DNA of 64,000 nucleotides from contig JAIXPZ010000042.1 of NCBI GenBank assembly GCA_027486005.1, forward strand, positions 2,894 to 66,893. The letters are read 5' to 3'. The stretch is from Legionellales bacterium. Its GTDB lineage: Bacteria > Pseudomonadota > Gammaproteobacteria > JAGOUN01. Position 1 is the stretch's first letter. The number at the start of each line of letters is the position of its first letter. Below, piece by piece: positions 7,363 through 31,774 of this stretch. The position numbers and the translations under genes are program-made. The notes under the pieces are model-generated. The model saw only the letters and a list, made by a program, of their open reading frames with translations, was not told where the DNA came from and made no database searches.

Positions 7363-8814
7363 ATGGAAAAAATCAATTGGCAAACGCCGATACCTTTGAT
7401 TATCAGCTCTGAAAGCTCCACGCCTGCGCCCTACCCTATTGATTCTTTACCCAAAGAAATCAGTACCCCAGTATTAAGCTATCAAAGCTATGGGCAACAA
7501 CCCGTAGCACTCATTGCTTGCGCGGCACTTGCAAATATATCCCTCGCTTGCCAGACGTTAGCTAATGTTGCACGTGATAGTTTACTTAAAAGCCCTACAT
7601 CTGTTTATTTTTTGATCAGCTGCCAAAGTGGAGAGCGCAAATCGGTCGTCGACCATTCTTTTGGTCAAGGTATTCGAGAATGGCAAGCTAAAACACGTGA
7701 AAAGCTAATGCCAAAAGTGATTGAAGCAACTGCGATATATTATGCTTGGAAAGCTGAGCGCGACGGTATTTTAAAACAAATACGACATGCAAATTCTGAG
7801 ATTTCGGCTGCTGACCTTCAATACCAATTGACAATTTTAGCTATGCAAGAACCCGAGATTCCATTATTACCAGAACTCTTTTTTGAAGATGTAACGCAAG
7901 AAGCTTTGATACATAACTTATCGCACGGATGGCCAAGCAGTTCGTTATGGTCGGATGAAGGCGGCATTGTACTATCAGGTGGTGGAATGCAAGCCAACGC
8001 AACAAAGTTTATCTCAACACTAAATCGTCTTTGGGATGGCAATTCATTTAACACCCATCGTAAAACGACTAAAAACAACACTGTCAAAAATCGACGTTTC
8101 ACGATGAGCTTAATGCTCCAACCTTTTCTTTTAGAGCACTTACTTAAAAAACAGGACTCAGTTGCACGTCAGAGTGGCTTTTTAGCACGCACGCTCATTT
8201 CACAACCGGCAAGCTCTATGGGGCAACGTTATTATCAAAGCCCGCCAGCCTCATTATCAGAATTAGATGATTTTCATGCAAGAATTAATGCTTGTTTAGA
8301 TGCCACTTTAGATTTAGATCATCATGGCTGTCATAAAATTCCAGTGCTGGAGTTTTCACCAAAGGCGAAAGAAAGATGGATAAAATTTTTTAACAACATA
8401 GAATCTGGAATAAATAAAGAAAATCATTGGAAATCCATGCCCGATTTCGCTAGTAAAGCAGCGGAAAATGTTGCGCGCCTCAGCGCCCTCTTCCATCTAT
8501 TTCTTGGTAAAGCTGGCGATATCAGTGCCGAGTCTGTGGAGCAAGCTGCCAACATTGTCTACTGGCATTTATTAGAAGCGAAGCGAATTTTTACACCGAC
8601 AGAACATCAAGAAAAACATCAAGAAGCGCAAAAAATATTGAACTGGCTTAAAACAAGAAATGTTACTCAAACATCTTCACGGCAATTACAACAATATGGC
8701 AATTTCCGCGATAAATATAAACGTGAAAATGCCATATGTACGCTCATTGAACATAATTATTTGATTGAAACTATCGAAAATGACAAAAAAATATTATTTG
8801 TTAACCCGGAGTAA
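7363..8814 (+). CDS. Hypothetical protein, 483 aa; possibly DUF3987/YfjI-like, unverified
   Basis: Long complete ORF with typical codon usage, divergent from the 5112..7148 gene with a shared promoter region at 7150-7360. No catalytic motif recognised by eye. Confidence 0.45.
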   Translation: MEKINWQTPIPLIISSESSTPAPYPIDSLPKEISTPVLSYQSYGQQPVALIACAALANISLACQTLANVARDSLLKSPTSVYFLISCQSGERKSVVDHSFGQGIREWQAKTREKLMPKVIEATAIYYAWKAERDGILKQIRHANSEISAADLQYQLTILAMQEPEIPLLPELFFEDVTQEALIHNLSHGWPSSSLWSDEGGIVLSGGGMQANATKFISTLNRLWDGNSFNTHRKTTKNNTVKNRRFTMSLMLQPFLLEHLLKKQDSVARQSGFLARTLISQPASSMGQRYYQSPPASLSELDDFHARINACLDATLDLDHHGCHKIPVLEFSPKAKERWIKFFNNIESGINKENHWKSMPDFASKAAENVARLSALFHLFLGKAGDISAESVEQAANIVYWHLLEAKRIFTPTEHQEKHQEAQKILNWLKTRNVTQTSSRQLQQYGNFRDKYKRENAICTLIEHNYLIETIENDKKILFVNPE

Positions 8815-15251: not shown

Positions 15252-18200
15252 CTAAGCCCATGTCGCGCATAGTGTTTCTGCTTGCTCTAACACTAAGTCA
15301 ATTGCTGCGTCTTCTTTATCTTTTGGATATTTATATTTTCTCAAAATACGCCTCACCAGCAACCGAAGCTTAGCCCGTATACTTTCACGCACTGACCAAT
15401 CTACACTGACATTATTTCGAAGACTCTCTGTAAGCTCATATGCTATTTTCTTAAGCGTTTCATCGCCTAATTCTTTAACAGAAGCTTCATTATTTGCAAG
15501 AGCATCATAGAATGCTAGCTCGTCTTCATTAAGGCCTGTAGCTTCACCACGCTTAACCGCTTCTTGAAATTTTTTTGACATTTCACATAATTCTTCCATG
15601 ACCTGCGCAGTTTCAATCGCACGATTGTGATAACGTCGCATGGTATTGGTTAATAAATCTGAGAATTTTTTCTCTTGTACGACATTAGTAGCGAATCGTG
15701 TTTTAATTTCATCTTCAAGTAATCGTTCTAATAATTCAACGGCTAAATTTTTCTCAGGTAAATTTTGAACTTCTGCCAAGAATGCTTCGTCTAAAATACC
15801 AATATTGGGTTTATCGAGACCCACTGCGTCAAAAATATCGATGACTTCATTCGATACCACAGCAGAGCTAATAATTTGTCGTATCGCAAATTCACGTTCA
15901 TCGTTGGTGCGTTTCTTTTCTCTTTTTTCAGGTTTGGTGATGATGACTTTAATACCCTGCATAAATGCTACTTCTTCACGCACGACTTTAGCTTCATCTA
16001 AAGTGCAACATAAAGTGAATGCTTTCGCCATTGCTAATGCATTATCAGAAAACCGTTTTTTACCGTCATCTAAGCCCACAACATAATCGGCTGCTTTTCC
16101 TAGTAAACTGGGCGCGCACTTTAAAAAATCACTGTAATCAAAGCCATGTAGCATTCCACGTAAGACATCCAATTTTTCTTCCAATACTGCATACGCTTCG
16201 TGGACATCAATGGTGGGTCTGCCGTGTCCTTGGCTCGCAGTATATTCTTTTAAGGCTTTTTTCAAATCATTAGAAATGCCAATATAATCGACTACTAAAC
16301 CACCCTGCTTATCTTTGAAAACACGATTAACACGCGCAATCGCTTGCATGAGGTTATGACCTTTCATCGGTTTATCAACATACAAGGTATGAGCGCACGG
16401 TACGTCAAACCCTGTCAGCCACATATCGCGTACAATCACTAAACGCAAATCGTCGTTATGATCCTTAAACCTCCCTTCTAAATCTTTGCGTGTTTGTTTT
16501 GAATAAATATGCGGACGTAGCAAGGGCTTATCACTCGCGGAGCCTGTCATCACGACTTTCACTACACCAAGCTTGGGATCTTCATTATGCCAATCAGGAC
16601 GTAATGCGATAATCTCATTATAAAGATGCACACAAATATCACGACTCATGCCCACAATCATCGCCTTTCCAATTTGCACTTTGTTACGCTCTTCGAAATG
16701 CGTAACTAAATCTGCAGCCACTTGCTTGATTCGTGGTTCAGAGCCAACAATTTTTTCTAACGCAGCCCAGCGCGATTTTAGTTTTGCTTGTTCGCTGTCT
16801 TCTTCATCTTCGGCTAATTCATCGACGTCATCGTCCAATGCAATAATCTCATTACCATTTAATGATAACTTTGCCAATCGTGGTTCATAATAAATCGCCA
16901 CCGTCGCACCATCTTGTTGTGCTTGTTGCATATCGTAAATATGAATGTAATTACCAAATACTGCACGAGTATCTCGATCTTCACTTGATACGGGCGTTCC
17001 TGTAAATGCAACAAACGTGGCATTCGGCAATGCATCACGTAAATGTTGCGCATAACCGACTTTATATTTTTCGTGGCCTTCTTTACCTTTTAGCTCAGAG
17101 CTAAAACCATATTGCGTGCGATGTGCTTCATCTGCAATCACGACAATATTACGACGGTCCGATAACGTTGGAAAAATATCTTCATCTTCACCCGCCATGA
17201 ATTTTTGAATCGTTGAAAATATGATTCCACCAGAAGGCCGATTATTTAATTTAATTCGCAAATCTTGTCGAGACTCCACTTGCACCGCTTGTTCACGTAA
17301 TAAATCTTGCGATAATGAAAACACGCCAAATAACTGACCATCCAAATCATTGCGATCTGTGATTACAACAATGGTTGGGTTTTCCATTGCAGGTTCACGC
17401 ATCACTCGCGCGGCAAAACAGGTCATCGTAATGCTTTTACCACTACCTTGCGTATGCCAAACAACTCCTCCTTTGCGATCACCACCTGAACGTGAAGCAG
17501 AAACCACTTGTTGAATCGCTGCTCGCACCGCATGAAATTGATGATATCCAGCGATTTTTTTTATCAATGTATCTTTGCTTTCTTCAAATAAAATAAAGAA
17601 TCGTAAATAATCTAAAAAATAAACTGGCGCTAATATGCCACGCGTCAAAGTTTCTAACTCATGAAACTTCCCCAGCGGATCCAGCGTCACACCATCAATC
17701 GTCCGCCACGACATAAACCGTTCCATATCCGAAGACACAGAGCCCATGTGCGCTTCGATGCCATCGGAAATAACCAATATTTCATTGTATTGAAAAATAT
17801 CCGGTATCTGTTCCTTGTAAGTTTGTATCTGATTAAATGCTTTTCCAATATCCGCATTTTCATCAACAGGATTTTTTAGTTCAATTAAGACCAATGGCAA
17901 ACCATTAATAAACAAAACAACATCGGGCTTTCTCGTATGCTTCGCGCCCTTGATCGCAAACTGATTCACCGCCAGCCATTCATTAGCCGACGTATTTTCA
18001 AAATCAATCAAGTTCACAAAGTCGCCGCGGGTTTCATCATCTTTTTGATACTGCACTGGAACGCCATTCACTAAAAAATGATGTAATTGACGATTAGCGG
18101 ATAATAAAACAGGGGTATTTAAATCGCGCACTTGTTGTAACGCATCTGCACGTGCTGCCAAAGGAATCGTTGGATTTAGTCGATCAATGGCATTACGTAA

Positions 18201-18341
18201 ACGCTCAAGCAATAGAACACCTTGGTAATTGCTACGCTCAGGTGACGGCCCGTCACAGGCAATATCTGGGCCATAAAGATGCATATAACCGAGATTGGAT
18301 AACCAAGTTAGCATTTCCTGCTCTAATTTATCTTCTGTCAT
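15252..18341 (-). CDS. hsdR: Type I restriction enzyme R subunit HsdR
   Basis: Contains the DEAH helicase motif II (VVIADEAHRTQYG), the conserved HsdR N-terminal region and the C-terminal domain. The track ORF extends to 18383. The probable true start is MTEDKLEQ at 18341, because the upstream 14 codons lie inside a 20-bp direct repeat. Confidence 0.9.
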   Translation of the reverse strand: MTEDKLEQEMLTWLSNLGYMHLYGPDIACDGPSPERSNYQGVLLLERLRNAIDRLNPTIPLAARADALQQVRDLNTPVLLSANRQLHHFLVNGVPVQYQKDDETRGDFVNLIDFENTSANEWLAVNQFAIKGAKHTRKPDVVLFINGLPLVLIELKNPVDENADIGKAFNQIQTYKEQIPDIFQYNEILVISDGIEAHMGSVSSDMERFMSWRTIDGVTLDPLGKFHELETLTRGILAPVYFLDYLRFFILFEESKDTLIKKIAGYHQFHAVRAAIQQVVSASRSGGDRKGGVVWHTQGSGKSITMTCFAARVMREPAMENPTIVVITDRNDLDGQLFGVFSLSQDLLREQAVQVESRQDLRIKLNNRPSGGIIFSTIQKFMAGEDEDIFPTLSDRRNIVVIADEAHRTQYGFSSELKGKEGHEKYKVGYAQHLRDALPNATFVAFTGTPVSSEDRDTRAVFGNYIHIYDMQQAQQDGATVAIYYEPRLAKLSLNGNEIIALDDDVDELAEDEEDSEQAKLKSRWAALEKIVGSEPRIKQVAADLVTHFEERNKVQIGKAMIVGMSRDICVHLYNEIIALRPDWHNEDPKLGVVKVVMTGSASDKPLLRPHIYSKQTRKDLEGRFKDHNDDLRLVIVRDMWLTGFDVPCAHTLYVDKPMKGHNLMQAIARVNRVFKDKQGGLVVDYIGISNDLKKALKEYTASQGHGRPTIDVHEAYAVLEEKLDVLRGMLHGFDYSDFLKCAPSLLGKAADYVVGLDDGKKRFSDNALAMAKAFTLCCTLDEAKVVREEVAFMQGIKVIITKPEKREKKRTNDEREFAIRQIISSAVVSNEVIDIFDAVGLDKPNIGILDEAFLAEVQNLPEKNLAVELLERLLEDEIKTRFATNVVQEKKFSDLLTNTMRRYHNRAIETAQVMEELCEMSKKFQEAVKRGEATGLNEDELAFYDALANNEASVKELGDETLKKIAYELTESLRNNVSVDWSVRESIRAKLRLLVRRILRKYKYPKDKEDAAIDLVLEQAETLCATWA

Positions 18342-18451
18342 TTTCGTCCTCACTATCCTTTTCTCGGTTTTGCGATGAAGCACTTAAGTATTTGATTTAT
18401 AATAACTTTTAACATTTTAACTCTAATAATCAGGTTTGCGATGAAGCACTT

Positions 18452-19861
18452 TTATGCCCAAAATGGCAAATATTTGATATATCGTGTAGAGCTTGATTCA
18501 ACATCATCGAGTTTAATTAATCCTGCTTCCTTAGTCGCCTTAATAATAGCAGAAACAATAGTCGCCGCCGATTCTGGTAATTTGAACCGCTCCCGCAAGG
18601 TTTGATTCGACATTTTCTGGTGGTTAACATACAGCAAGCAGCAATGCTGATAACAAGCTCTTATCCTGTCTTTTTTGCTCATATCTGCAAAATCTTGATG
18701 CGCAAAAAGTATAGCGGTTGTGCGTATCTCTCCCACTCTAAAATCAGGCGCAGGCAATTGATAATCTTCAACTGCTTTTACAACCTTATCAACACCACTG
18801 CCCTTTTCTTCACAAATACCAAATCGGCGCATAATATCTGCTAATTTCTCATTACGAGATTGGTATTCATCAATAAAGCGTTCGACCTTAATCGAAGGCA
18901 GGCCAGGATTAGAAATTTCTAAACGATTAGAATACATTTCTATCATGACGGACATGCCTGTCATCGTAAAATCTTGATGCACCAGCGCATTAGCAATTAA
19001 TTCACGTAAAGCTTGTTTTGGAAACATTTTAATTTCTTCACGTACTCCTTGCTCAATAAAATGATTTTGCGGCGCAGCTGAATGAATAAAGTCAACGATG
19101 CTATCAAAATCAACCGCATAACCTTTTGTTTCTTGTTTATCATCCTGCGTAGAAAGTTTATCGATACCTTTATAAATAACAATACGAGGTGCTTTACGGG
19201 CTAAAGATGAAGAAAACGCATCTAAACGCTTCGCCAGTAAAATCGCTGCTAAATTTAAAATTATCCAACTACCATCTTCTTGCTTAATGAGGCCTTCTTT
19301 GGCAAAACGATCTAAAACCGCATCACGCGTGGTTGGATAAGGTAACTTCATCAAATCAAAATATATTTGTGTATCTAATAAAGAAATAACATCATCCGAG
19401 CTGGCATCTGTTTTAGCAGCTTGCTCTAACCAACTAGGTTCTCCTTCAGAAAAAATTCGGCGCAACTGATCTTGTGTCATGGGCACTAATTCTTCCCCGG
19501 AACGCATTAAATACTTTCCATCAAGTTGATATGCTTGTCCTATTAATCGAGAAGGAATTTCAAAAATCAATACACGCTCATCAGAATGGTGTAACTCAGT
19601 CACATCAACACGAAAATGTAATTTTGATAAAATATAAGATTTTATATCACCAATATTGAGAAACGCTTGGGTGCCAACAACTTTACGAGGAGGTTTATCA
19701 CTAACACCGAACACCAGATAGCCACCGCGTTCATTAGCAATAGCCACACAATATTCTAATAATTTCGTTTTATCATACTGTTGTTTAGCTTCTTTGAATT
19801 CAAGATTCTCATTTTCTTTTGGAATAATTAGCCAGCGATTTAGCATATCTAGGGTGGTCAT
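18452..19861 (-). CDS. AlbA_2 (Schlafen-like 'divergent AAA') + HATPase_c_4 putative DNA-binding ATPase, of the kind commonly embedded in Type I R-M loci
   Basis: N-terminal region NLEFKEAKQQYDKTKLLEYCVAIANERGGYLVFGVSDK matches the AlbA_2 core. A C-terminal HATPase-like region is present. It sits between hsdS and hsdR. Confidence 0.65.
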   Translation of the reverse strand: MTTLDMLNRWLIIPKENENLEFKEAKQQYDKTKLLEYCVAIANERGGYLVFGVSDKPPRKVVGTQAFLNIGDIKSYILSKLHFRVDVTELHHSDERVLIFEIPSRLIGQAYQLDGKYLMRSGEELVPMTQDQLRRIFSEGEPSWLEQAAKTDASSDDVISLLDTQIYFDLMKLPYPTTRDAVLDRFAKEGLIKQEDGSWIILNLAAILLAKRLDAFSSSLARKAPRIVIYKGIDKLSTQDDKQETKGYAVDFDSIVDFIHSAAPQNHFIEQGVREEIKMFPKQALRELIANALVHQDFTMTGMSVMIEMYSNRLEISNPGLPSIKVERFIDEYQSRNEKLADIMRRFGICEEKGSGVDKVVKAVEDYQLPAPDFRVGEIRTTAILFAHQDFADMSKKDRIRACYQHCCLLYVNHQKMSNQTLRERFKLPESAATIVSAIIKATKEAGLIKLDDVESSSTRYIKYLPFWA

Positions 19862-19891
19862 ATAGAGGCCTTATTCTATAAAAAATTATTT

Positions 19892-20710
19892 TCAGACATG
19901 AGGTTTTTTCGCTTCTTCAGTTTCTATTTTATGATAAACATCAATATATTTTTTGATAACTTCAGCCCCTGTAAAAAATTGAGTGAATTCGCCGTAGTTT
20001 TTGTCAATTGGTTTGAAATACTCTTTAGTTATGCAATCAGTTATTAACACTCCGTTTTCATTAACATCATATGAAACTCGCGCGGCTCGATCTATAAAGC
20101 AAGCTAAAATATACAGGCTTTTTGGTGATATTTTATTTGTCTTGGCTATGTCATATAAAATTTTGTCATCATGCTTCACAGGTGCGCCATGATAATCATT
20201 ATACTCTATGCCAAAGAAAAACTGATAAAAGTCAATTTTTGAAACTATATCAATCAAGCTATAAGCTGTATTAATATAATCGGTTAGATAGATTTCTATG
20301 TGTGCTTTTTCTGTTACTTTTTCGCACAAACCTTCAGTAGCCTTTAATGCATCAATCACTTTATGCCATATTATATTATTTTTCGCAACGGGCACAGATC
20401 TAGACTTGCGATCAATATTGAGTTCAGCAAAACCTTGAAAGTATTTCTGTATTTGTTCAAGATAGAACTTCGACGATTTTTCTTTAGAATCTTTACGGTA
20501 GTTACATATCGCATAAAGCAAGACTGCGGCAGTAAAAGCTGATCCTGAAGCTGTAAAATAATCTTTTTCAGATGGGCCTAATATTAAAAATATAACGCCC
20601 AGACTGAAAAAAATCAAAGTTAAAATAACGATAAAAATAGTTGCTATCAAGCTTAAATATTTTTTTATAATATACCACCATTTTTGGCGTGCAATATCTT
20701 TAGTGCTCAT
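19892..20710 (-). CDS. Hypothetical 2-TM membrane protein, partner of the Abi_C-like gene
   Basis: N-terminal hydrophobic helices (YLSLIATIFIVILTLIFFSLGVIFLILG and FTAAVLLYAICNY) followed by a soluble domain with no recognised motif. Its start overlaps the upstream gene's stop at 20710. Confidence 0.5.
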   Translation of the reverse strand: MSTKDIARQKWWYIIKKYLSLIATIFIVILTLIFFSLGVIFLILGPSEKDYFTASGSAFTAAVLLYAICNYRKDSKEKSSKFYLEQIQKYFQGFAELNIDRKSRSVPVAKNNIIWHKVIDALKATEGLCEKVTEKAHIEIYLTDYINTAYSLIDIVSKIDFYQFFFGIEYNDYHGAPVKHDDKILYDIAKTNKISPKSLYILACFIDRAARVSYDVNENGVLITDCITKEYFKPIDKNYGEFTQFFTGAEVIKKYIDVYHKIETEEAKKPHV

Positions 20711-21579
20711 TATGATATCTCTGTAGTTGTGTTCAGTTTTTCAACGTGTGTTTCAAATAAAAAAGTGACTAACGTTGCGGCGGCTCCAGCCGCAAGCTTT
20801 GCATGTCGGGATTGTAATGCTTGTGTTTTTGCTGGTTTACCATGCCCTGTCCCATATAGCCCTCGAAGTTGAGAAAGGTCATTTCCTATAGTGCCAAGGC
20901 TTCGCAAAATTGCTTTTATTAAATCAGAGCCTCGTTTATTATCTTCAACTCCTTCGGGAACTAGTGATAATTCTTTCAATAGCATTTTTGTTAATGTTGG
21001 TATATCGAGAGCGCCTGTTATCGGGATACCTCTCTCTTCAAGAATTGTTTTGCATGTTGTTTCGATTAATTCTTTAGCAGTACCAATAACCAAGGACGGA
21101 TCTGTTTCTACTGATTCTTTCATGCGTAGAATCTGCAGTTGAATGTGTGCCCCATCAAGCTTGTCAGGAAAACACATTAAATCATTAAATGTTGAGGGAG
21201 ATATCGGTTCGATTAATTTATTATTAATCCACTCTATACCGTCTCTTTTAAGTTGTGTCATTAGTTCTCCCGCAATATTACAATTATTTTCATAAGTAAT
21301 ATTGCAGTAGAAACCTAGAGGTTGAGCTGTAAGATCAAGAATTACATTTTCATAAACTTTTAATATTTTACGCACGCTAATCCGATTGGACCAGTTAACT
21401 GTATGGTAATATTGTTCCACCAGTATTCGCCGTTCACCACTAATACCTTCTGGCTGGTAACTGCTATCACAAAGGACTTCATATGCTTTAAACGCATCGT
21501 GAATTACGCGAAGAGTGCTATTGACAAAATATTCTCTAAATTTAATACGCGTTCTAATGCTGACAATTGATGACGTCAT
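20710..21579 (-). CDS. Abi_C-like (abortive infection C-terminus, HEPN-superfamily) protein
   Basis: C-terminal region NDLSQLRGLYGTGHGKPAKTQALQSRHAKLAAGAAATLVTFLF has the R-x6-H (RGLYGTGH) signature of the HEPN/Abi_C family. Its start overlaps the hsdS stop (21576-21579), indicating co-transcription with the R-M genes. Confidence 0.5.
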   Translation of the reverse strand: MTSSIVSIRTRIKFREYFVNSTLRVIHDAFKAYEVLCDSSYQPEGISGERRILVEQYYHTVNWSNRISVRKILKVYENVILDLTAQPLGFYCNITYENNCNIAGELMTQLKRDGIEWINNKLIEPISPSTFNDLMCFPDKLDGAHIQLQILRMKESVETDPSLVIGTAKELIETTCKTILEERGIPITGALDIPTLTKMLLKELSLVPEGVEDNKRGSDLIKAILRSLGTIGNDLSQLRGLYGTGHGKPAKTQALQSRHAKLAAGAAATLVTFLFETHVEKLNTTTEIS

Positions 21580-22901
21580 GCTGTGACCTCATATTCGCAT
21601 GACTTCAATTGCCCGGAAATTAAGCGTGGCAGCAATATATCACGTAGTGTTGAAAGAGTTTTAATTTGTTTTAAGTTGGCAGAAAATCTATTTCGCAGAG
21701 GCAAGGTCGATAAATCAAATGCATGCAGTACATCGTGGCTTGGAATAATAAGTTTGAGCTTTGCAAGCATTGAGCGGCTTAATTCTGTTTGGCCAGTGGA
21801 ACCTTCACCCAGTTGTTCAATTTCCGCTTGTCGATTTGAAAGCGCTAACCCAAGATAATTCCATGTTAATAATCCTCCCACACGGACTACAGTAACATGT
21901 GAATCAGCAATTATTGGTTCATCAATTGAGAGAATTTGTGCAACACGTCCAAGAGTGCCAACACCTGTGGAATTTACCAGTACATCTCCAACTAATAATT
22001 CTCGACCTTCAATTTTTCTTTGTGCAGGATCATGGGTGCGCGCTTTTGTTAAGTCAACAATATTATCCCGTATACACTTTTGATTGATGACAGTAATCCC
22101 CGCATTTACTGTATATTTGGGTGAGATGCCTCGGCTAAGATATGTGACTGTTTCTCCAAGTGAAGAAACTTTCCATCCTAATGGTATTAATCCCAGCTCT
22201 GACTCTTCAAAACTATCAGGAAAAAGTGCCGCTGTCTCTGCATCCATTCTTTCAGGTTCACGACCTTCAGCTTTTGCACGTACTGGATCGAAATCAATAA
22301 ACCAGGATTTGAAAAGGGTTTGAGCAATGGATTCGATGGTAATATTGCTTTTGCGTAGTAATTCGATACGATCATCAAGCGATCCTAAAATCTCTAAAAT
22401 TTCTTTTTGCTTTTTTAACGGCGGAACCGCAACTTGCATTTTGTCTACACGAGTAATGTAAATATGTTTGATCGTTGAGCCATCAGAATCATTTTCCATA
22501 ACTTGCTGGTAATAATGAGAAGATAAAAGATATTTCAAGAAGTACGGATTAATTAATTTATTTGGCCTCAATAAAGCAACGGATTGATTAATGCATAAGT
22601 TTTCTTTATCGACAACCGCTACTCTACCAATGGAGCCGTCTTTAGTGAGAAGCACATCACCAATTTTCGGTTTACTTTTATTGGACAGTTTATTAGTAAA
22701 TGCATCTAAAGTTGTCCGTCGTGCCGTTACATAATTTATGCGTCCGTCTACTATATCTTTTGCTGTTAATTTCCACGGGCCATCTTTAGCATCAGGCATG
22801 GGATTTGTAAATCCGTAAGTAATCAAATCTAAAAAGTGTCTTAAATCTTCAATATACCAATCGTTAGGAACAAGCCCAATTTCTGCTTGTTTAAAATTCA
22901 T
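21576..22901 (-). CDS. hsdS: Type I restriction-modification specificity subunit HsdS
   Basis: Two target-recognition-domain halves separated and followed by the conserved HsdS repeats (LRKSNITIESIAQTLFKSWFIDFDP and LRDILLPRLISGQL). Position between hsdM and hsdR. Confidence 0.9.
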   Translation of the reverse strand: MNFKQAEIGLVPNDWYIEDLRHFLDLITYGFTNPMPDAKDGPWKLTAKDIVDGRINYVTARRTTLDAFTNKLSNKSKPKIGDVLLTKDGSIGRVAVVDKENLCINQSVALLRPNKLINPYFLKYLLSSHYYQQVMENDSDGSTIKHIYITRVDKMQVAVPPLKKQKEILEILGSLDDRIELLRKSNITIESIAQTLFKSWFIDFDPVRAKAEGREPERMDAETAALFPDSFEESELGLIPLGWKVSSLGETVTYLSRGISPKYTVNAGITVINQKCIRDNIVDLTKARTHDPAQRKIEGRELLVGDVLVNSTGVGTLGRVAQILSIDEPIIADSHVTVVRVGGLLTWNYLGLALSNRQAEIEQLGEGSTGQTELSRSMLAKLKLIIPSHDVLHAFDLSTLPLRNRFSANLKQIKTLSTLRDILLPRLISGQLKSCEYEVTA

Positions 22902-23061
22902 AGCTAGGTCCTTTTGACTTTTTTGAATTAAATTTCTCCAGTAATGATTTTGTGACGCTCTGAACTACTTCATTAAGCTCACAATTACATTCATCTTCCT
23001 TTATTAATTGTGCTATAGCTTGTGCCTCAATTGAGAAATTATCTTTGTAAGCTCTCATCAT

Positions 23062-24618
23062 TTACACCTCAAACCCAAGTTTCGCTAAATTTTTACGAAT
23101 GAAATCATCCAAGTCAGCACCTTTCGTCATTTGATCTCCAAGCTTTGCAGTAAGTTTTTGCATTTTATCTACAAAAGCTTCTACATTATCTTCAACAGCT
23201 TCCGTGCCGACATAGCGGCCTGGGGTTAGTGCATGACCATGTTCTGTAATTTCAGCAAGTGATACGCTTCGACAAAATCCTGCAATATCAGCATATGTTT
23301 CTTTTGCTTCACCATCGCCACGCCACGCTTGTACAATATCAGAAATTTTTTGAATATCTGCGTCGGTGAATTCCATTTGCGAGCGGCTGATCATCGTGCC
23401 GAGCTTGCGTGCATCGAGGAAGAGCACTTCACCTTTGCGGAGAGTTTTATTTTTTGAGAGAAACCATAAACAAGCCGGAATTTGCGTATTAAAAAATAGT
23501 TGTCCAGGTAAAGCGATCATACATTCTACAACATCGGCTTCTACCATTTTTTTACGTATATCGCCTTCGCTATTTTGATTAGAGCTCATCGATCCATTGG
23601 CGAGAACAATGCCCGCGCGGCCGTTGGGTTTGAGATGGTACAACATGTGTTGCAGCCAGGCATAGTTGGCATTGCCTTGAGGTGGTGTTCCATAGACCCA
23701 GCGTGGGTCGTTGTCTAAACTTCCATGCCACCAATCAGAAATATTGAACGGTGGATTAGCTAAAATAAAATCTGCACGTAAATCTGGATGTTGGTTCTTG
23801 GTGAAAGTATCGCCAGGCTCTTTACCGAGGTTGAAATCGATACCGCGAATCGCAAGGTTCATTGCCGCTAAACGCCATGTCGTCGGATTAGATTCTTGTC
23901 CATAAATTGAAACGTCACCTAATTTTCCACCGTGTGCTTCAATAAATTTTTCAGATTGCACAAACATACCACCTGATCCACAACACGGGTCATACACTTT
24001 TCCATGATGCGGCGCGAGAACGGCCACAAGTGTTCGCACAATGCTAGCGGGTGTATAAAACTGTCCGCCCTTCTTGCCTTCAGAGCTAGCAAATTGGCCA
24101 AGAAAATATTCGTAAACCTGCCCTAATAAATCTTTTGCATTTTGACCAGCGGCACCAAATCCAATAGAAGAAATTAAATCGACCAACTCACCTAACTTGC
24201 CATCCGGTAATTGCGCACGCGCATAACGCTTATCAAGAATGCCTTTGAGCTTTGGATTATCTGTTTCGATCAGCGACAGTGCATTATCAATTAGTTTGCC
24301 AATATCAGGTTGCTTTGCTTGCGCTCGTAAACTTTCCCATCGAGCTGCTTCTGGAACCCAGAACGCATTCACTTCTCTATAATAATCACGGTCCTCTAAT
24401 TCTTTCGCAAGAGATTCTGCATCTGTATCATGCAGATAATATTCATCTTCTTTATTGGTAAAACGGCAAGTGAGTTCATCACGACGCATTTGAAAAGTAT
24501 CAGAAATATACTTCAAGAAAATTAAACCCAACACAATGTGTTTGTATTCTGCAGCATCCATGTTGGCGCGCAGTTTGTCAGCGGTTGCCCATAGGGTTTT
24601 CTTTATATCGTCTAACAT
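23062..24618 (-). CDS. hsdM: Type I R-M N6-adenine DNA methyltransferase HsdM
   Basis: N6-MTase motif IV NPPF (ILANPPFNISDW), an AdoMet-binding region (VYDPCCGSGGMF) and the HsdM N-terminal domain. Confidence 0.95.
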   Translation of the reverse strand: MLDDIKKTLWATADKLRANMDAAEYKHIVLGLIFLKYISDTFQMRRDELTCRFTNKEDEYYLHDTDAESLAKELEDRDYYREVNAFWVPEAARWESLRAQAKQPDIGKLIDNALSLIETDNPKLKGILDKRYARAQLPDGKLGELVDLISSIGFGAAGQNAKDLLGQVYEYFLGQFASSEGKKGGQFYTPASIVRTLVAVLAPHHGKVYDPCCGSGGMFVQSEKFIEAHGGKLGDVSIYGQESNPTTWRLAAMNLAIRGIDFNLGKEPGDTFTKNQHPDLRADFILANPPFNISDWWHGSLDNDPRWVYGTPPQGNANYAWLQHMLYHLKPNGRAGIVLANGSMSSNQNSEGDIRKKMVEADVVECMIALPGQLFFNTQIPACLWFLSKNKTLRKGEVLFLDARKLGTMISRSQMEFTDADIQKISDIVQAWRGDGEAKETYADIAGFCRSVSLAEITEHGHALTPGRYVGTEAVEDNVEAFVDKMQKLTAKLGDQMTKGADLDDFIRKNLAKLGFEV

Positions 24619-25100: not shown

Positions 25101-26951
25101 ATAAAAGGCTATGGGTGAGTAGACCAGGGGAATCTCACCCCTAGCCCCTCTTAGAACCGTACGTGACAGTCTCCCGTCATACGGCTCCCATTACTCAACC
25201 GGCGACGCTAGTCCATAGCGCCAATGCACAAAGAGTTGAGGATAGTGTTTGAATACTCTCCCCAAGTACCGTCTAGCTCTCTTTTTGCTTGCCTGTCCTG
25301 TATTGCTTGCATATTTGCGTTGCGCCCATCTTTGCAGATGTTTCTCTATCTGCACAAACGCCTCTGTCACTTCACTTCGATAAAATCTTCCATAATAATT
25401 CACCCATCCACTGACTCGCGGATTGGTTAATTTCGCCAGTTCCTTGAGTGACATACAGGTCTTTCGATGCAGACGCCAGCTGCGAATGGTTTGGCGAATG
25501 GCTGTCTTCGCTGCATTGCTTATAGCGGGAACAAAGCCGACAAAACCTTTGCCTTCTTTACTCATGACTAATCTTCTTCTGAAGGTGTAGCCTAAGAAAT
25601 CAAAGCTTCTGGGTATGTCTTCTTTTTCTTCTTTAGCTACGCCACAGTAAACAACTTTCGTTTTCTGCGGATGCAATTGCAGCTTGCACTGCGCCATTCG
25701 AGCCTCAATTTCTGCTTTGAGCTGTAATGCCTCATTTTGTGATGTGCAATGGACAATAATATCATCAGCATAACGCTCAAACTGAACGTTAGGGTGTTGT
25801 TTTCTTATCCATTTATCAAACACGTAGTGCAGAAAAATATTCGCTAACAATGGACTTACAACCCCGCCTTGAGGCGTGCCTGTTGTTCTGGGTTGCAATG
25901 ATCCATCGGCCAATTGAGCTGGAGCTCGTAGCCAATGTTTCACGTGCAACATTATCCATCGATCGATACTGTGCTTTTCTAGCGCCAATATGAGCAATTC
26001 ATGATCAATATTGTCAAAGAAACCCTTAATATCAAGATCGATCACCCAGTCACGCTTCCAGCAGCGCTGCCGACATTGTCCCACCGCATCGAGCGCTGAC
26101 TTGTTTGGTCGATAGCCATACGAGTCTTGATCAAAACGGGGTTCGAAGTGAGGCTCAAGGTGCATCGTGACCACCATTTGAGCAATACGGTCGGCGACCG
26201 TGGGTATTCCCAAATAGCGTTGTCCGCCGTCTTTCTTCGGTATCGCTACCGTTTTCACGGGCGGTGGAAAGTAACTGCCTGAGGACATTCGATTCCACAG
26301 TTTATACAGATTGTCTTTGAGTTTTACCTCAAAGTCTGCAATCGACTGGTTATCGACACCCGCCGCGCCTTGGTTACGCTTTACACGCAAATACGCTTGC
26401 CATACATCCTGTTTAGGAATAGCAAACGGTTTTGTTTTACTCAAAAGTTCCTCCCACCATTGGTTGACCTCTAACTAAAACGGAGTAACTCAACCCCTTC
26501 GCTCCATAGCCATTACAGCCACTTCAACACTACTACGGGTTGATCCGCCCCTGTGCTCTGCGTTGGTATTTTCTCTTGGCTTTTATACCTCGAAAGTTCC
26601 CTTATCATCAGAACGACAGGTTCCCGCAGTTCCATACTTAAGCCTAAAATAGGATCATGCTACCTCTACACCGGACACCGCCTATCCAATCATCAGGCCC
26701 CCGATAGACTTTATTCCTAGAGCCATAGAACTCACCCTAGTTTCGATGTCGTCCGATCCATTTCGACGTGTCAACGGTAGTTCACTTGCGTTCATCTTCC
26801 TATTTCGCACATGACTGTTAAAACAGCCTTTTCCTTATCGCTCACTACCAGGGCTCTTTACCCTAGCAGCATAAGGTTGTTTAAAGCCTACTCCTGAAAG
26901 TCGGCTTTGGTGGGCCTACCACCATCTTAAGTGCAGCTTGCTGCGGCACAC
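25101..26951 (-). mobile_element. Group II intron, about 1.85 kb, encoding an En-less RT/maturase; boundaries are approximate
   Basis: The minus-strand 5' end reads GTGTGCCGCAG (reverse complement of 26941-26951), matching the GUGYG consensus. Domain V reads GAGCCGTATGACGGGAGACTGTCACGTACGGTTC (reverse complement of 25154-25187). Domain VI reads GGCTAGGGGTGAG...CTCACCCATAGCC with a bulged A (about 25107-25150). The RT ORF sits in domain IV. Confidence 0.85.
25191..26444 (-). CDS. Group II intron-encoded reverse transcriptase/maturase, no endonuclease domain
   Basis: RT blocks are present (AIPKKDGGQRYLGIPTVADRIAQ and YADDIIVHC, the YADD active site). A maturase X-domain tail is present and there is no H-N-H motif. 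Confidence 0.9.
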   Translation of the reverse strand: MSKTKPFAIPKQDVWQAYLRVKRNQGAAGVDNQSIADFEVKLKDNLYKLWNRMSSGSYFPPPVKTVAIPKKDGGQRYLGIPTVADRIAQMVVTMHLEPHFEPRFDQDSYGYRPNKSALDAVGQCRQRCWKRDWVIDLDIKGFFDNIDHELLILALEKHSIDRWIMLHVKHWLRAPAQLADGSLQPRTTGTPQGGVVSPLLANIFLHYVFDKWIRKQHPNVQFERYADDIIVHCTSQNEALQLKAEIEARMAQCKLQLHPQKTKVVYCGVAKEEKEDIPRSFDFLGYTFRRRLVMSKEGKGFVGFVPAISNAAKTAIRQTIRSWRLHRKTCMSLKELAKLTNPRVSGWVNYYGRFYRSEVTEAFVQIEKHLQRWAQRKYASNTGQASKKRARRYLGRVFKHYPQLFVHWRYGLASPVE

Positions 26952-27049
26952 TTCCACGTGCAACACTCCAAAATTATACTCTTCTAAAGGTGCTCGGCTG
27001 TATTTTGAATATTATATTTTCATATAGTTCAAATTTTGTACTATATATC

Positions 27050-27822
27050 CATATAAATAGGTACATAAATAGGAACAATATAGGTACGTATATAGGAACA
27101 ATTAATAGTTGGATCGATTATGAAATAAATGAGCGAGGTTACTTCTACTCTGATAGCTTTCATCAACTGCGACAATTAAACCATTTTAGAACTTTTATAC
27201 CCTCCCCTCGCCTCTAAGCCAATTACAACCATGTTAATGATCGCTCTTAAAACATATAGCTTTAAAACGAATCATTATATAGGAACATTAATGGGAACAA
27301 ATATAAGTACATATATAGGTACAATAATTATTAGTACGCTGAAGATATTTTGATTATATACGCGAATATTCTGTTCCTATATTTGTACCTATTTAAAATA
27401 ATAAGTACAAATATGGGGACATATATAGGAACAACATAACAACAGAGATCTGGAGGCTATAAAAAAATAATATAGGAACAAAAATAGGTACAATGTATAT
27501 TTATCAAATATTAAATTTGTCGATTTAATATAGGTACAAATATAGGAACAAAATATTTTATTCCTTATTTTTAAATGTATTATGAAATACATTTGTGCTT
27601 TATAATTTTAAATTAATAAGAAAATACTACAGTTAAAATAGGTACAGTACAATACAATATAGGAACACAAATAGGATCAAATATAGAAACATATATGAGT
27701 ACATATATAGGAACAAATATTGGTGAGATTTTGACAAAGATCTGTTCCTATATTTGTACCTATATTAATAAATAGAAACAAATATAGGAACTTAATTGGG
27801 TACAAATATAGGAACAAAATAT
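27050..27822. repeat. Iteron array: about 30 copies of an 11-bp motif ATATAGGAACA / ATATAGGTACA in both orientations, often as 22-bp dimers (GGTACAAATATAGGAACAAA)
   Basis: Read directly, for example at 27056-27100, 27284-27330, 27375-27400 (inverted), 27404-27440, 27470-27500, 27526-27560, 27635-27725 and 27740-27822. It lies immediately upstream of parA. Confidence 0.85.
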
Positions 27823-27911
27823 AATGGTGATTTTTTACAGCTTTCAAATAATTAGCATCCTGTATTAATGGTTGCAATTTTTGCCATTCGGATAGAAAGC
27901 GACGTAACTCA

Positions 27912-29000
27912 TTGAAATTGTTAAAAAGACCATCTTCACCATCTTTTCTTAAAAAGATCTTGATATTATCACCATATTTGTTTAAGTTAAGGGTATCAGA
28001 ATATCAATTCCTTAAAAAACATGGGGCAATGATGGAAATCGATCCAAAAATTACTGCTGCGGAAATCGCTTTATATCTAAAAATGACTGTTCAAGCTATA
28101 CACAATAAAGTTAAGTCAAAAGGGCTGAAAGTAAAAAAAGCTCAAAATAAAGCCTACTTTGGACACGAGACGGCTAGGGTGATCATTAACCACAATGTTA
28201 ACCAATTGAAAATAGCTATTTCGGTTGTAAAGGGTGGGGTAGGGAAGACTACGTTAGCAGAAGCACTTGCCATTCGTGTAGCTCTATATGGTCTTCGTGT
28301 TCTTTGTATCGATGTGGATCAGCAAGCAAATCTAACTAAAGGCTTGGGCATGGACGAAAAAGCCAAGCACTGCCCAGTGATGATAGATCTTATCGAAGGT
28401 AAGGCAAAGGCTGAAGAAGCTATATTACAAGTAATGCCAGGTCTCGATCTGATTCCTAGTCGTTTAGATAATGTAACACTCGATGGTTATATGATGATTA
28501 ATCGAGTAAACCCAGAGAAAATTTTTAATAAAATTTTTGAGGACGTATTTAAAAACTACGACCTAGTTATCTTTGATTGTCCTCCTACATTAGGTTCTAC
28601 TGTATGCGCTGCGATGTTATGTGCCGATGTAGTAATTTCTCCATTAAATCCAGACGTGTATTCTTATGAAGGAATACAAATCATGGACAAGGAAATTAAA
28701 AATATTCGCGAACAATTTAGTAAAGACATTAATTGGAAAATTCTACTTAATAAATTTGATTCCAGAACTATTCTTTCTACCGGCTATATAAGTCAGCTAA
28801 TGCAAGATCCGGCATATGCTTCAAGATTGCTTGATAGTGTCATCAGAACAAGCCAAGAGTTTCCTAATATGAAACAAAAAGAAAAAACGATTTTTGATTC
28901 TCTTAAGAAATCTACGGCAAAAGAAGATATTGATGCTCTTGCAAAAGAAATAATTGAAATAATGAAGATTCACTCAAAAACAACCCAAGCAGCGAAGTAG
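27912..29000 (+). CDS. parA: ParA/Soj-family partition ATPase with an N-terminal HTH extension (type Ia-like); the likely start is ATG at 28029
   Basis: Deviant Walker A KGGVGKTT, plus Walker A' and B regions. The roughly 60-aa N-terminal extension (EIDPKITAAEIALYLKMTVQAIHNKV) is HTH-like. The track start at 27912 adds 39 low-complexity codons. ATGATG at 28029 is preceded by GGGG. Confidence 0.85.
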   Translation: MKLLKRPSSPSFLKKILILSPYLFKLRVSEYQFLKKHGAMMEIDPKITAAEIALYLKMTVQAIHNKVKSKGLKVKKAQNKAYFGHETARVIINHNVNQLKIAISVVKGGVGKTTLAEALAIRVALYGLRVLCIDVDQQANLTKGLGMDEKAKHCPVMIDLIEGKAKAEEAILQVMPGLDLIPSRLDNVTLDGYMMINRVNPEKIFNKIFEDVFKNYDLVIFDCPPTLGSTVCAAMLCADVVISPLNPDVYSYEGIQIMDKEIKNIREQFSKDINWKILLNKFDSRTILSTGYISQLMQDPAYASRLLDSVIRTSQEFPNMKQKEKTIFDSLKKSTAKEDIDALAKEIIEIMKIHSKTTQAAK

Positions 29001-29014
29001 GGTAGGGGACTTGT

Positions 29015-30271
29015 ATGACAACAGCAGCAGACCTTCTTAAAAAGGCTGAATCTAGAGGTAAAACTCCTCATGTATTTCAACCACAAAAAAGACGTGCATG
29101 GGATTATGCTGTTCAAGAAATAGCTATCAGTGAAGAAATTGTACAAAAAGAAAATAGGAACGAATCTGGGGACAATTGGGTACAGAAATCGGAACAAAGT
29201 GAGGACACAAATAGGAACAATAGGGTACAAATATCGGAACAAAGTAGGGACGAAAATGGGTACGAAAATAGGAACAATTTATCTCAAGAAACTAGTCAAG
29301 ACAAGAAGTTAGACGCTAGTAAATCTATCAATAAATTACCTACTTTACACGATGAAAATATCGAAGCTAATGTGCTAAAGGTATTGAGAAAAATAACAGG
29401 ACATCAACAACAAATTATGGGGCAAATTACAGCTCATATTAAAAGTTTAAAAGAGATAACAAATACAATTAATATACCTATTTCTACGCTATCAGAAAGA
29501 ATAAATGCAGATAAAGATATAACAAGAACTTCCATAAAAAGATTACAGCAAAAATCTATTTTATTAAAAGAATCTGGTAAGAAAGGGCGGCATGGCAGCA
29601 CGTATGTATTGGTTCCTGATTTTATTATAAAAGAGTGTCTAAATTTGTTTGACTGCGGGCCACTTTCTTTTGAAGAAACTGGGTACATAAATAGGAACGA
29701 ATATAGGAACGAATATAGGAACAATAATTCCCTATATAGTAGTAATAATATAAATACTACTACTAGGAATACGGATGACTTACCTGAAAATTGGTTGGCT
29801 ATAAATTTTGAACCGTTAACGGATATTGGATTTTCCCTTACTCAATTACGACAATTGTGTTTGAAATCACTCAATACTCCTGAGGTTGTTCAAGAATCGA
29901 TTAACCACTTTGCGTTTGGTATCGAAAACAATCCTAAGTTTCAGAAGTACTCAGAGCCATTGAACGTATTAATGGGGGTTTTACGCAAAGGAGACGCATG
30001 GTTTGAAAAAAATTATGTATCACCGCAGGAAAAAGCACAACGGCGATTACTTGAATTTAAAAAGGCAGAAGGTGAAAGGCTAAAAGCACTTGAAGAAGAA
30101 GCTTATAAAATTGCTCTAGAAGATTGGAAAGCAAGTTTGTCTGTTGAAGAAATCGAGAATATTGTGCCGAAGCAAGCAAAAAAGGGGGATATTACTCCCC
30201 ATAGTGTAAAAATGAGTGCGTACTTCAGAGAAAATATTTGGCCACTTAAAAAAAATGATTATTTGATTTAA
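29015..30271 (+). CDS. Winged-helix DNA-binding protein with iteron copies embedded in its coding sequence; candidate centromere-binding (ParB-analogue) or Rep-like iteron-binding protein
   Basis: HTH/wing-like segment NIPISTLSERINADKDITRTSIKRLQQKSILLKESGKKGRHGSTYVLVP. It sits downstream of parA and is translationally close (ATG 12 nt after the parA stop). The coding sequence carries iteron copies at 29150-29285 and 29686-29725, which encode NRNEYRNEYRNNN. Confidence 0.5.
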   Translation: MTTAADLLKKAESRGKTPHVFQPQKRRAWDYAVQEIAISEEIVQKENRNESGDNWVQKSEQSEDTNRNNRVQISEQSRDENGYENRNNLSQETSQDKKLDASKSINKLPTLHDENIEANVLKVLRKITGHQQQIMGQITAHIKSLKEITNTINIPISTLSERINADKDITRTSIKRLQQKSILLKESGKKGRHGSTYVLVPDFIIKECLNLFDCGPLSFEETGYINRNEYRNEYRNNNSLYSSNNINTTTRNTDDLPENWLAINFEPLTDIGFSLTQLRQLCLKSLNTPEVVQESINHFAFGIENNPKFQKYSEPLNVLMGVLRKGDAWFEKNYVSPQEKAQRRLLEFKKAEGERLKALEEEAYKIALEDWKASLSVEEIENIVPKQAKKGDITPHSVKMSAYFRENIWPLKKNDYLI

Positions 30272-30288
30272 TAAATTGGGAGATAAAT

Positions 30289-31056
30289 ATGAAAATCGGA
30301 ATTATTGCAGCTGTGCAAGATGAAATAAAAACCATACATGACGATATAAGTTTTGATAAAGAAAAAGTAGTTACTCATGCTGAACGGCAATATTATTTAG
30401 GTACTCATGAAGGAATGGAGCTAGTTCTTGTTTATTCGAGAGTTGGTAAGGTAGCCGCAAGTATGACTGCAACTACATTAATAGAAAAATTTAATGTTGA
30501 CCTCATCATATTTACAGGTTTGGCAGGTGCAGTTTCCAAAAATCTGAATAGAGGGGACATCATTTTATGTGATAAAACATATCAGCACGATTTTGATGGA
30601 CGACCTTTATGTGAGAATCAATTTGAGATACCTTTGACGAACAGAATATTTTTTGAAACTCCTCAAACTCAACTAAACATAGCCAAGAAAGGAATTGAAA
30701 ACTTTTTGGCTAATTTTAACAAATACGTTAATCCTATTGATTTGCAGAAACTAGAGGTTGATAAACCAAAACTATATGTTGGAGTAATAGCGACAGGGGA
30801 TCAATTTATACAAGATATTGATAACCAAAAAACTCTTTATATAAATAAAGTTGAAACGCTAGCTGTAGAAATGGAAGGTGCCGCTGTTGCTCAAGTTTGC
30901 TCAGAATATCAACTGCCATATATATTGGTCAGAATTATTTCTGATAAAGCTAATGATTCAGCGCACGTAAGTTTACAAGAATTTTCAGTAAAAGCGGCTA
31001 GCCATTATGCTAGTGGGATAGTTCAAGAGATACTTTCTTTATTGAAAACCAATTAA
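30289..31056 (+). CDS. MTA/SAH nucleosidase-like (PNP_UDP_1 family, Pfs/MtnN-like) nucleoside hydrolase
   Basis: N-terminus MKIGIIAAVQDEIKTI resembles the Pfs start MKIGIIGAMEEE. Glycine-rich GLAGAV and a C-terminal EMEGAAVAQVC segment are typical of the family. Confidence 0.65.
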   Translation: MKIGIIAAVQDEIKTIHDDISFDKEKVVTHAERQYYLGTHEGMELVLVYSRVGKVAASMTATTLIEKFNVDLIIFTGLAGAVSKNLNRGDIILCDKTYQHDFDGRPLCENQFEIPLTNRIFFETPQTQLNIAKKGIENFLANFNKYVNPIDLQKLEVDKPKLYVGVIATGDQFIQDIDNQKTLYINKVETLAVEMEGAAVAQVCSEYQLPYILVRIISDKANDSAHVSLQEFSVKAASHYASGIVQEILSLLKTN

Positions 31057-31084
31057 TTATTGAATAATTTAGAAATGGGGTTAA

Positions 31085-31774
31085 GTGATGAATTTACGTC
31101 GAGAGTACTCGTTAAATAGTAAGTTTCTTATAGCATTAGTAATGATATATATGGCATTAAATCTCACTTCTGATGCCATTGCATTTAGATTCTATAATAT
31201 TGGACAATTTGCTATATCAGCCTCTGGTTTAATATACCCCCTTACTTTTTTTATCACTGATAGCATAGCTGAAGTGTATGGGTATTCGATCGCACGTAAG
31301 GTGATTTGGATAGGATTGATTTGTGAATTCATGTTTGCAATTCTTATCGAGATACTAATTAGATTACCATTAACCTCAACAGTGGATAATGGCAATGCTT
31401 TTTTAATCACACTCGGTCCGTTACTACAATTTGTTTTATCATGTATAGTTGGCGATATTGTCGGTATTTTTCTAAATGTATACTGCTTAAGTAAATGGAA
31501 AGTCATTCTAAAAGGTAGATTTTTTGCCGCTCGAAGCATTATTTCTACTTGTTTGGGTGAACTCTCTATGACGTTTATTTGTATTCTTTTAGGGTTTTCA
31601 GGCTATAATAATTTAACTACTAATATAAAGGTTGCAATTACAACATACGCTCTTCTTGTTGCATATGCGGTGATATTGGTTTGGCCAACTTGGCTTTTCA
31701 CATCAATTTTGAAACGCGTAGAAAAATTAGATGTTTACGACATCAATACGAATTTTAACCCTTTTCGATTTTAA
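31085..31774 (+). CDS. YhhQ/DUF165 (VUT-family) membrane transporter, queuosine-precursor-transporter-like
   Basis: Multi-TM protein. LTFFITDSIAEVYGYSIARKVIWIGLI aligns with the E. coli YhhQ segment FLATDLTVRIFGAPLARRIIFAVMI. Confidence 0.6.
   Translation: MMNLRREYSLNSKFLIALVMIYMALNLTSDAIAFRFYNIGQFAISASGLIYPLTFFITDSIAEVYGYSIARKVIWIGLICEFMFAILIEILIRLPLTSTVDNGNAFLITLGPLLQFVLSCIVGDIVGIFLNVYCLSKWKVILKGRFFAARSIISTCLGELSMTFICILLGFSGYNNLTTNIKVAITTYALLVAYAVILVWPTWLFTSILKRVEKLDVYDINTNFNPFRF

Follow-up and report, generated by a model that had tools for sequence, protein, structure and literature searches.

Copies of a plasmid iteron inside the gene of a putative winged-helix initiator encoded behind parA in a Legionellales contig

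The stretch of DNA analyzed here, hereafter the window, comprises 64,000 nucleotides of contig JAIXPZ010000042.1 from a Legionellales bacterium (assembly GCA_027486005.1) and carries a partition gene, parA, followed by an open reading frame (ORF) at 29015-30271 that encodes a protein of 418 residues. The repeats (iterons) that fill the region upstream of parA recur at two places inside this ORF, and we consider it highly probable that these intragenic arrays have been selected as DNA sites. With moderate confidence in the mechanism as a whole, we propose that ORF 29015-30271 encodes an iteron-binding winged-helix initiator of a large plasmid replicon family that has remained unannotated. The elements on which this proposal is built are, in their order along the window:

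27038-27830, units mostly on the + strand: upstream iteron field, about 25-29 aATAGGWACAa units that fill about 0.8 kb before parA
28032-29000, + strand: parA, a Walker-type partition ATPase of 322 residues, with the start at 28032 taken from the gene callers
29015-30271, + strand: maintenance protein gene, 418 residues, composed of an N-terminal basic peptide, linker 1, winged helix, linker 2 and a C-terminal helical domain
29151-29278, + strand: linker-1 array, 11 consecutive degenerate units, all on the + strand, with a spacing of 10-12 nt (mean 11.4)
29676-29725, + strand: linker-2 array, four near-perfect units with a spacing of exactly 12 nt, encoding GYINRNEYRNEYRNN
29727-29770, + strand: palindrome, a longer imperfect hairpin with its core at 29738-29764

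The 12-bp unit repeated in the window has the consensus aATAGGWACAa. Its core, ATAGGWAC, occurs 29 times in the 64 kb against 2.2 expected, a number never matched by shuffled sequences; 20 exact copies lie at 27057-27815, upstream of parA, and six lie inside ORF 29015-30271, starting at 29154, 29211 and 29268 and at 29691, 29703 and 29715. A position weight matrix trained solely on the copies upstream of parA gives 29 matches of at least 8 bits and 23 of at least 12 bits in the upstream field, and 11 matches of at least 8 bits inside the ORF, where shuffled sequences give 0.8 (maximum 4). Tandem Repeats Finder reports period-12 and period-23 arrays, both in the upstream field and inside the ORF. 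Motif enrichment, the matrix and Tandem Repeats Finder thus all agree with an earlier note on this DNA, which had claimed that the intragenic repeats are true copies of the iterons of the plasmid, and both peptides quoted in that note are found in the translation of the ORF. Two of its details have to be corrected. The 45-nt string that it placed at 29686-29725 lies at 29681-29725, and ORF 29130-29312, which it called antisense, is on the + strand in another frame, the antisense ORFs being 29113-29277 and 28970-29242.

The repeats had also been described as an in-frame sequence giving NRNEYRN peptides. This is correct for the linker-2 array, whereas the linker-1 array is read in two codon phases, with units that encode NRN in one and SEQ or WVQ in the other. 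The spacing of the arrays (about 11-11.5 bp, helical) is not a multiple of three, and for this reason the same unit is read in two phases in the window; at a related locus (L045), the iteron unit is read in all three (NGT, TEH, KRN). In the phase that would read TAG, the linker-1 units carry TCG or TGG instead and keep the remaining core, which explains the degeneracy of linker 1. In a comparison of the window gene with one homologue of 67% identity, the synonymous-codon identity of conserved residues falls from 0.92 (linker 1) and 0.83 (linker 2) to 0.64 (winged helix) and 0.50 (C-terminal domain). Despite having the highest synonymous identity, linker 1 has the lowest amino-acid identity (0.48) to this homologue. 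Given that the linkers are encoded by what would be arrays of binding sites, selection is expected to act mainly on the DNA, with the peptide largely a by-product. A different view is that selection acts on the peptide, with RN, DN or GN repeats as functional disordered motifs, but one and the same DNA unit gives different peptides depending on the phase in which it is read.

Close homologues of the 418-residue protein number 218, and their source records name them 'hypothetical' or as generic regulators. They are found on Piscirickettsia and Legionella plasmids, and in genomes or contigs of Rickettsiella, Aquirickettsiella and Fluoribacter, and a more distant one lies on a Rickettsiales plasmid. 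To evaluate co-variation, the 7-mers repeated most often in the 1.1 kb before parA were taken from each locus and counted elsewhere. Across about 20 loci, these own-iteron 7-mers are present in 2-20 copies in the ORF of the same locus and in 0-2 copies in its parA, and they are rare downstream. On average, an ORF contains 7.7 copies of the 7-mers of its own locus and 1.8 of those of another, parA contains about 0 of its own, and the cross-locus matrix has a block-diagonal form. The iterons belong to at least six types (TAGGWAC, AGGAATC, AGATATC/AGGTATC, AGAGTTC, AGRTAAC and AGAGACA), a distant Piscirickettsia branch has the iteron AACGGAACACA with an 11-bp period, and one exceptional locus (L034) has no clear repeat. 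Apart from one locus that is considered below, the intragenic copies are confined to linkers 1 and 2, and nearly all of them lie on the coding strand. The peptide repeats of the linkers are the translation of the iteron of the plasmid itself, consisting of RN, DN, GN, GI or DI; between iteron types they are wholly different, yet they match the upstream non-coding repeat, which is not what selection on the peptide would give.

The number of units is also variable. Linker 2 of a gene with 98% identity is shorter by exactly one 12-bp unit (RNEY), and linker 1 of Piscirickettsia contains a 45-bp block of four units that is present in four copies in locus L003 and six in locus L004, with other lengths among the aligned homologues. 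The comparison of homologues that the earlier note had proposed as a test therefore gives a positive answer, the unit number differing between close relatives. Such variation, together with the disorder of the linkers and the poor conservation of their peptides, would also be produced if the repeats had no function as DNA sites and had arisen by slippage in the linkers and homogenization with the upstream repeats by recombination. Nonetheless, the two positions, the strand and the helical spacing are retained across at least six iteron types, synonymous conservation peaks in the linkers, and the stop-avoiding substitutions leave the rest of the unit intact. Furthermore, parA, which lies between the arrays, does not gain copies. 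We therefore regard slippage and homogenization as a very improbable explanation. The proposal that this DNA performs a double duty, as a protein-binding site and as coding sequence for the linkers, is supported by the related loci, with the binding itself predicted from the sequence.

The linker-2 iterons are followed by a second element that is conserved in the family. In the window, the core of the palindrome consists of AGTAGT, then AATAATATAAAT, then ACTACTACT, and encodes YSSNNINTTT. Nearly all members have the pattern TAT(AGT)2-6, 9-27 nt of pure A/T and (ACT)2-4, with mutually reverse complementary arms, and the palindrome starts 10-25 nt after the linker-2 iterons. Of 32 homologous genes, 21 match a strict form of the pattern, invariably in phase 0, and the 64 kb of the window contain it a single time. 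The peptide encoded across the family, YSSSNINTTT, is conserved, and the codons used for it are strongly biased: 80 of 84 serine codons in the palindrome are AGT, compared with 17% elsewhere in the same genes, and 65 of 67 threonine codons are ACT, compared with 31% elsewhere. This extreme bias indicates a constraint on the nucleotides. The palindrome is independent of the iteron type and is conserved along with the C-terminal domain. On these grounds, it is a candidate unwinding or loading element of an intragenic origin. A second origin inside the gene, as suggested by the earlier note, gains support from this conserved A/T palindrome, while the role of each array, be it origin, centromere or operator, is still a matter of prediction.

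The conservation of the YSSSNINTTT peptide could also reflect selection at the level of the peptide, or of the mRNA if an (AGU)n/(ACU)n hairpin regulated translation or mRNA stability. The palindrome could fold as RNA too; as DNA, the hairpin at 29727-29770 has a folding energy of -5.9 kcal/mol (z -2.4). The nearly invariable use of AGT and ACT reveals a constraint on nucleotides, which fits DNA or RNA, and the hairpin is weak. Given this, and the dependence of the linker peptides on phase and on iteron type, we give selection on peptide or mRNA very little credence.

The protein itself is divided by the arrays into three parts:

29015-29107, + strand: N-terminal basic peptide, residues 1-31, family consensus M..L......K.F.....R.W
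29351-29650, + strand: winged helix-turn-helix domain, residues 113-212, with a predicted local distance difference test score (pLDDT) of about 80-90
29783-30268, + strand: C-terminal all-helical domain, residues 257-418, the best-conserved region of the protein

No Pfam, NCBIfam, PHROGs or PDB-sequence family was found for the 418-residue protein, and its sub-threshold matches in Pfam, NCBIfam and PHROGs (Sigma54_DBD, TatD and sigma factors) were rejected as noise. A PDB sequence-profile search returned just two weak matches, to generic winged-helix regulators, and megablast of 26900-30400 against PLSDB gave no match. In the AlphaFold2 model, obtained from an alignment with 31 homologues, a short N-terminal helix lies within the conserved basic peptide, and residues 33-112 and 222-253 are disordered, with the winged helix at 113-212 between them. 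The two disordered segments correspond to the two iteron arrays. The model and Foldseek therefore bear out the earlier description of a winged-helix segment flanked by low-complexity linkers, with Foldseek matches of this domain to CodY, MarR, ArsR, TubR and the Orc1 winged helix. The winged helix of some relatives also gives weak matches to Phage_rep_O, HTH_36, MarR and Rep3_N.

The winged helix is presumed to be the iteron-binding module. The residues of its recognition helix and wing cluster according to iteron type, a grouping that fits the protein as the binder of the repeats and that is confounded by shared ancestry. In the N-terminal peptide, R27, W29 and D30 are invariant among 31 members and F21 is nearly so, and the motif is discernible in the consensus of 115 distant members. 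The C-terminal domain, when modeled alone, has a pLDDT of 91; a Foldseek search against the PDB gave nothing at E<2 for this domain, and no Pfam or PHROGs family was found for it. When this domain was used alone as the query, clusters at 50% identity yielded 900 representatives with E<=1e-3 and 578 with E<=1e-10. In all of the 150 best representatives listed the domain is C-terminal, and the proteins mostly have 300-550 residues. This domain may recruit host replication proteins or mediate oligomerization.

Given these features, the module could work as follows. The winged helix would bind all three arrays. The four phased sites of linker 2 and the adjoining A/T-only palindrome would form an origin inside the gene, to which the conserved C-terminal domain would bring host replication proteins. 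The upstream field would serve as the centromere and as the operator of the parA operon, and the linker-1 array as an auxiliary control, pairing or centromere site. The same protein would probably be the partner of ParA, via its basic N-terminal peptide. Short phased iterons beside an A/T-only palindrome are a classical origin layout. Two complete plasmids that carry the module, one of 33 kb from Legionella and one of 18.9 kb from Piscirickettsia, have no other Rep or ParB gene annotated, and no domain of a second Rep or ParB was present in the 30 window ORFs scanned, a subset of the ORFs. For the Piscirickettsia salmonis plasmids pPSLF89-2 and pPSLF89-3, it was reported that there is no rep gene, iterons or oriV, and passive replication was speculated (PMC6963756). 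It is the absence of any other Rep, combined with the initiator-like architecture of the protein and the origin-like layout of the DNA, that leads us to read the protein as the missing initiator.

In 31 of 40 related loci, the homologous gene is immediately preceded by that of a ParA homologue in the same orientation. In the window, the product of parA matches AAA_31 (2.5e-40), CbiA and ParA in Pfam and ParA_partition, PrgP and SopA-like families in NCBIfam, and its N-terminus gives a weak helix-turn-helix signal. The 418-residue protein is probably the partner of this ParA, since the two genes come without a ParB or another Rep gene, and the N-terminal basic peptide is the likely ParA contact given that parA is adjacent and ParB is absent. 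The upstream field contains two inverted iteron pairs, at 27373-27392 and 27744-27763 (inverted repeats I3-I6), and is a candidate centromere, operator and copy-control array. On the + strand before parA, no promoter was recognized by a simple sigma-70 scan, and Rfam gave no RNA family on the module except for the adjoining group II intron. One further feature of the field is relevant to the position of the origin:

27550-27640, between iteron clusters: A+T stretch of at least 90% (40-nt windows), the only one within 26900-30300

The minimum of the cumulative G-C count, at 27268, is also located in the upstream field. In the window and in both complete plasmids, the GC-skew minima fall within the module, and with 2.3 kb between them, the upstream field and linker 2 are not distinguished by GC skew.

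These properties can be accommodated by a protein that is a novel ParB-like adaptor only, with the intragenic arrays as extra centromere or nucleation sites and with replication from the upstream field, by host factors or by an unrecognized element. Sites of this kind are not foreign to such genes, as parS sites occur inside parB/spo0J genes. The gene stands in the position of parB, directly after parA, in most of the related loci, the protein starts with a conserved basic peptide and continues into a long disordered linker, the upstream field, with 23-29 units, is large, and the skew minimum and the A+T-rich stretch are both upstream. A protein limited to partition would, nonetheless, leave complete plasmids of 19-33 kb without any initiator, and would not explain why an origin-like, family-wide A/T palindrome follows 10-25 nt past a short phased array. 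In addition, the combination of winged helix, site-encoded linker and conserved C-terminal domain is a known initiator architecture, and no ParB/Sulfiredoxin domain is present. For these reasons, a role in partition alone appears unlikely. Of the two functions together we are tentative: it is possible, though it commands less confidence than the initiator proposal itself, that the protein is a bifunctional initiator and ParB-like adaptor of an orphan ParA, acting on one iteron at three places, with the palindrome as unwinding or loading element, and that it defines a new class of replicon.

Several observations weigh against the initiator proposal. Two loci depart from the co-variation: in L020, 18 units lie upstream but the gene, which is shorter, contains none, and the gene of L018 contains two copies of its own 7-mers, of which one is in a linker. 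No DnaA boxes (at most one mismatch) were found in the iteron field or in linker 2. The origin could be in the upstream field, which contains both the skew minimum and the sole stretch with 90% or more A+T, and the N-terminal helix-turn-helix of ParA could be an alternative binder of some of the repeats. Because the C-terminal domain has no recognizable fold relative, the recruitment of the replisome by this domain is a guess. Finally, the comparison by hhalign of the family profile with that of the lambda O protein gave a weak match (probability 21%, E 1e-3), from the winged helix to O residues 40-108.

The initiator O of phage lambda is one of several known systems that come close to the module in layout. 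In lambda, the origin lies in the middle of gene O, where the presence of two additional iterons lengthens the protein by 13 residues (PMC7466680; lambda record). Like the 418-residue protein, O has an N-terminal winged helix, a linker encoded by iterons with an A/T-rich tract, and then a C-terminal domain, which in O recruits the helicase loader. Here, the iterons at 29676-29725 and the palindrome at 29727-29770, with its spacer of 100% A/T, begin 9 codons after the winged helix. Unlike lambda O, the present gene belongs to a plasmid module coupled to parA, with a second array before the winged helix, a large upstream array and an N-terminal basic peptide; its C-terminal domain is unrelated, and its units are asymmetric and of 11-12 bp, in contrast to the 18 bp of the lambda sites (annotated record). 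No P-like gene was found near ORF 29015-30271. The Phage_rep_O family (PF04492) is matched by 1 of 31 and 4 of 115 relatives, with a best E of 3e-6, and not by the window protein, and both hhalign comparisons with lambda O, one using a single sequence and the other a 12-sequence profile, were weak. From these comparisons, homology to lambda O is only hinted at.

Initiators of the RepA_N type, such as those of pSK41 and pAD1, share with the present protein a winged helix, repeats in the central linker of their own gene and a conserved C-terminal domain. The N-terminal domain of pSK41 Rep recognizes four Rep boxes in the central part of rep, the linker encoded by the origin is dispensable as protein, and the conserved, lineage-specific C-terminal domain binds DnaG (PMC5703833). 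RepA_N initiators belong to plasmids of Gram-positive bacteria, whereas the hosts here are Gammaproteobacteria and Rickettsiales, and the present module differs further in its two intragenic arrays, its (AGT)n/(ACT)n palindrome and its parA operon without a separate ParB. The RepA_N domain (PF06970) was matched neither by the window protein nor by 146 relatives. The repABC plasmids of Alphaproteobacteria also combine a partition ATPase and an initiator in one operon with an intragenic origin. Their oriV is inside repC at an A+T-rich region where silent mutations abolish replication, and the study of p42d found no iterons in repC (PMC3155836). In contrast to repABC, in which RepB is a separate ParB, the present module has no equivalent of RepB and iterons are dominant; no RepC domain appeared in any Pfam scan of the window protein or its relatives.

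With type Ia ParABS systems (P1 ParB, F SopB), the module shares a gene straight after parA, an N-terminal basic peptide, a flexible region, a helix-turn-helix and flanking arrays. Upstream arrays are present in about 20 loci. The module differs from ParABS in having repeats inside the gene, on plasmids without a separate Rep gene, and no ParB/Sulfiredoxin or SopB domain was found by Pfam or NCBIfam in the window protein or in the Pfam scans of its relatives. The tandem winged helices of Rep_3 initiators (PF01051; pPS10, F and R6K type) are absent, since the model has a single winged helix, and one weak match to Rep3_N (8e-4) was found in 1 of 115 relatives. The profile searches recommended by the earlier note thus did not assign the protein to the Rep_3, RepA_N or ParB families, while structure prediction supplied the winged helix.

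Origins and iterons inside initiator genes are therefore already known. What is new is that the family had not been annotated, that an intragenic array lies on either side of the DNA-binding domain, that an (AGT)n/(ACT)n palindrome is present, that the module is strictly coupled to an orphan parA and that co-variation is clear over at least six iteron types. Nothing specific was found in the literature on this family or on a bifunctional Rep and centromere-binding protein. If the bifunctional reading is correct, a new class of replicon maintains plasmids of Legionella, Piscirickettsia, Rickettsiella/Aquirickettsiella and some Rickettsiales. The module offers a testable replicon for plasmids whose replication is unexplained, and conjugative plasmids of Legionella carry the module too. 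Incompatibility typing could be based on the iteron type, and the replicon could likewise underlie shuttle vectors and curing tools for intracellular pathogens that are hard to manipulate. If the protein is both Rep and ParB-like, it would be a minimal way of coupling replication and segregation. The arrays, threaded through different frames in each lineage with stops avoided, are an unusually clear case of overlap between the constraints of DNA sites and of coding sequence.

Some members of the family deserve a separate description. The plasmid of Candidatus Bandiella (NZ_CP110821, 3050-4765; L046) carries a Rickettsiales homologue behind parA, with ten perfect 33-bp repeats in linker 1 (KESGTESGTNT). 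Its upstream region is broken by remnants of transposases, and matching upstream iterons were not found there. In the Logan assemblies SRR16126900-03 (L049 and L048/L050), short-read contigs with an identical gene end in or beside the upstream iteron field. These contig ends suggest that assembly fails at the repeat array, perhaps the reason why this type of replicon has been under-described.

In the window, a triplet of iterons is also present at 50396-50433 on the - strand, with a 12-nt spacing and matrix scores of 19.9, 12.5 and 13.0 bits, encoding GLFLYLFPYLFLLL. These are the sole matrix matches of at least 12 bits outside the parA region, and they sit in the 5' part, coding for membrane helices, of a traD-like coupling-protein gene (50319-52346). 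The triplet could be a link between maintenance and transfer, or a further pairing site. When outlying clusters were checked for generality, a complete Legionella plasmid with the module had no iteron cluster outside it.

The left edge of the iteron field is abutted by a complete group II intron (25114-26923, - strand), with Rfam matches to D1-D4 and to domain V/VI and with its reverse transcriptase/maturase ORF at 25191-26444; the first iteron unit is about 115 bp to the right of the intron. The maintenance gene is followed, at 30289-31774, by a PNP_UDP_1 nucleosidase and a Vut_1 queuosine-precursor transporter. A queuosine-precursor transporter is found at the equivalent position in the Legionella C9_S plasmid (L005, 5155-6084), which suggests that it is a conserved cargo beside the replicon. 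Further to the left, a type I restriction-modification system occupies 15252-24618 on the - strand, with hsdR at 15252-18383, hsdS at 21576-22901 and hsdM at 23062-24618, and a Schlafen/AlbA_2-HATPase_c_4 gene (18452-19861) is embedded among its subunit genes. This system is adjoined by an ORF of 2087 residues (8958-15221) in which no Pfam domain was found. An Abi_2 abortive-infection gene, a tyrosine integrase and a DUF3987 protein are clustered at 1847-8814, and this cluster may be a separate element integrated within the plasmid.

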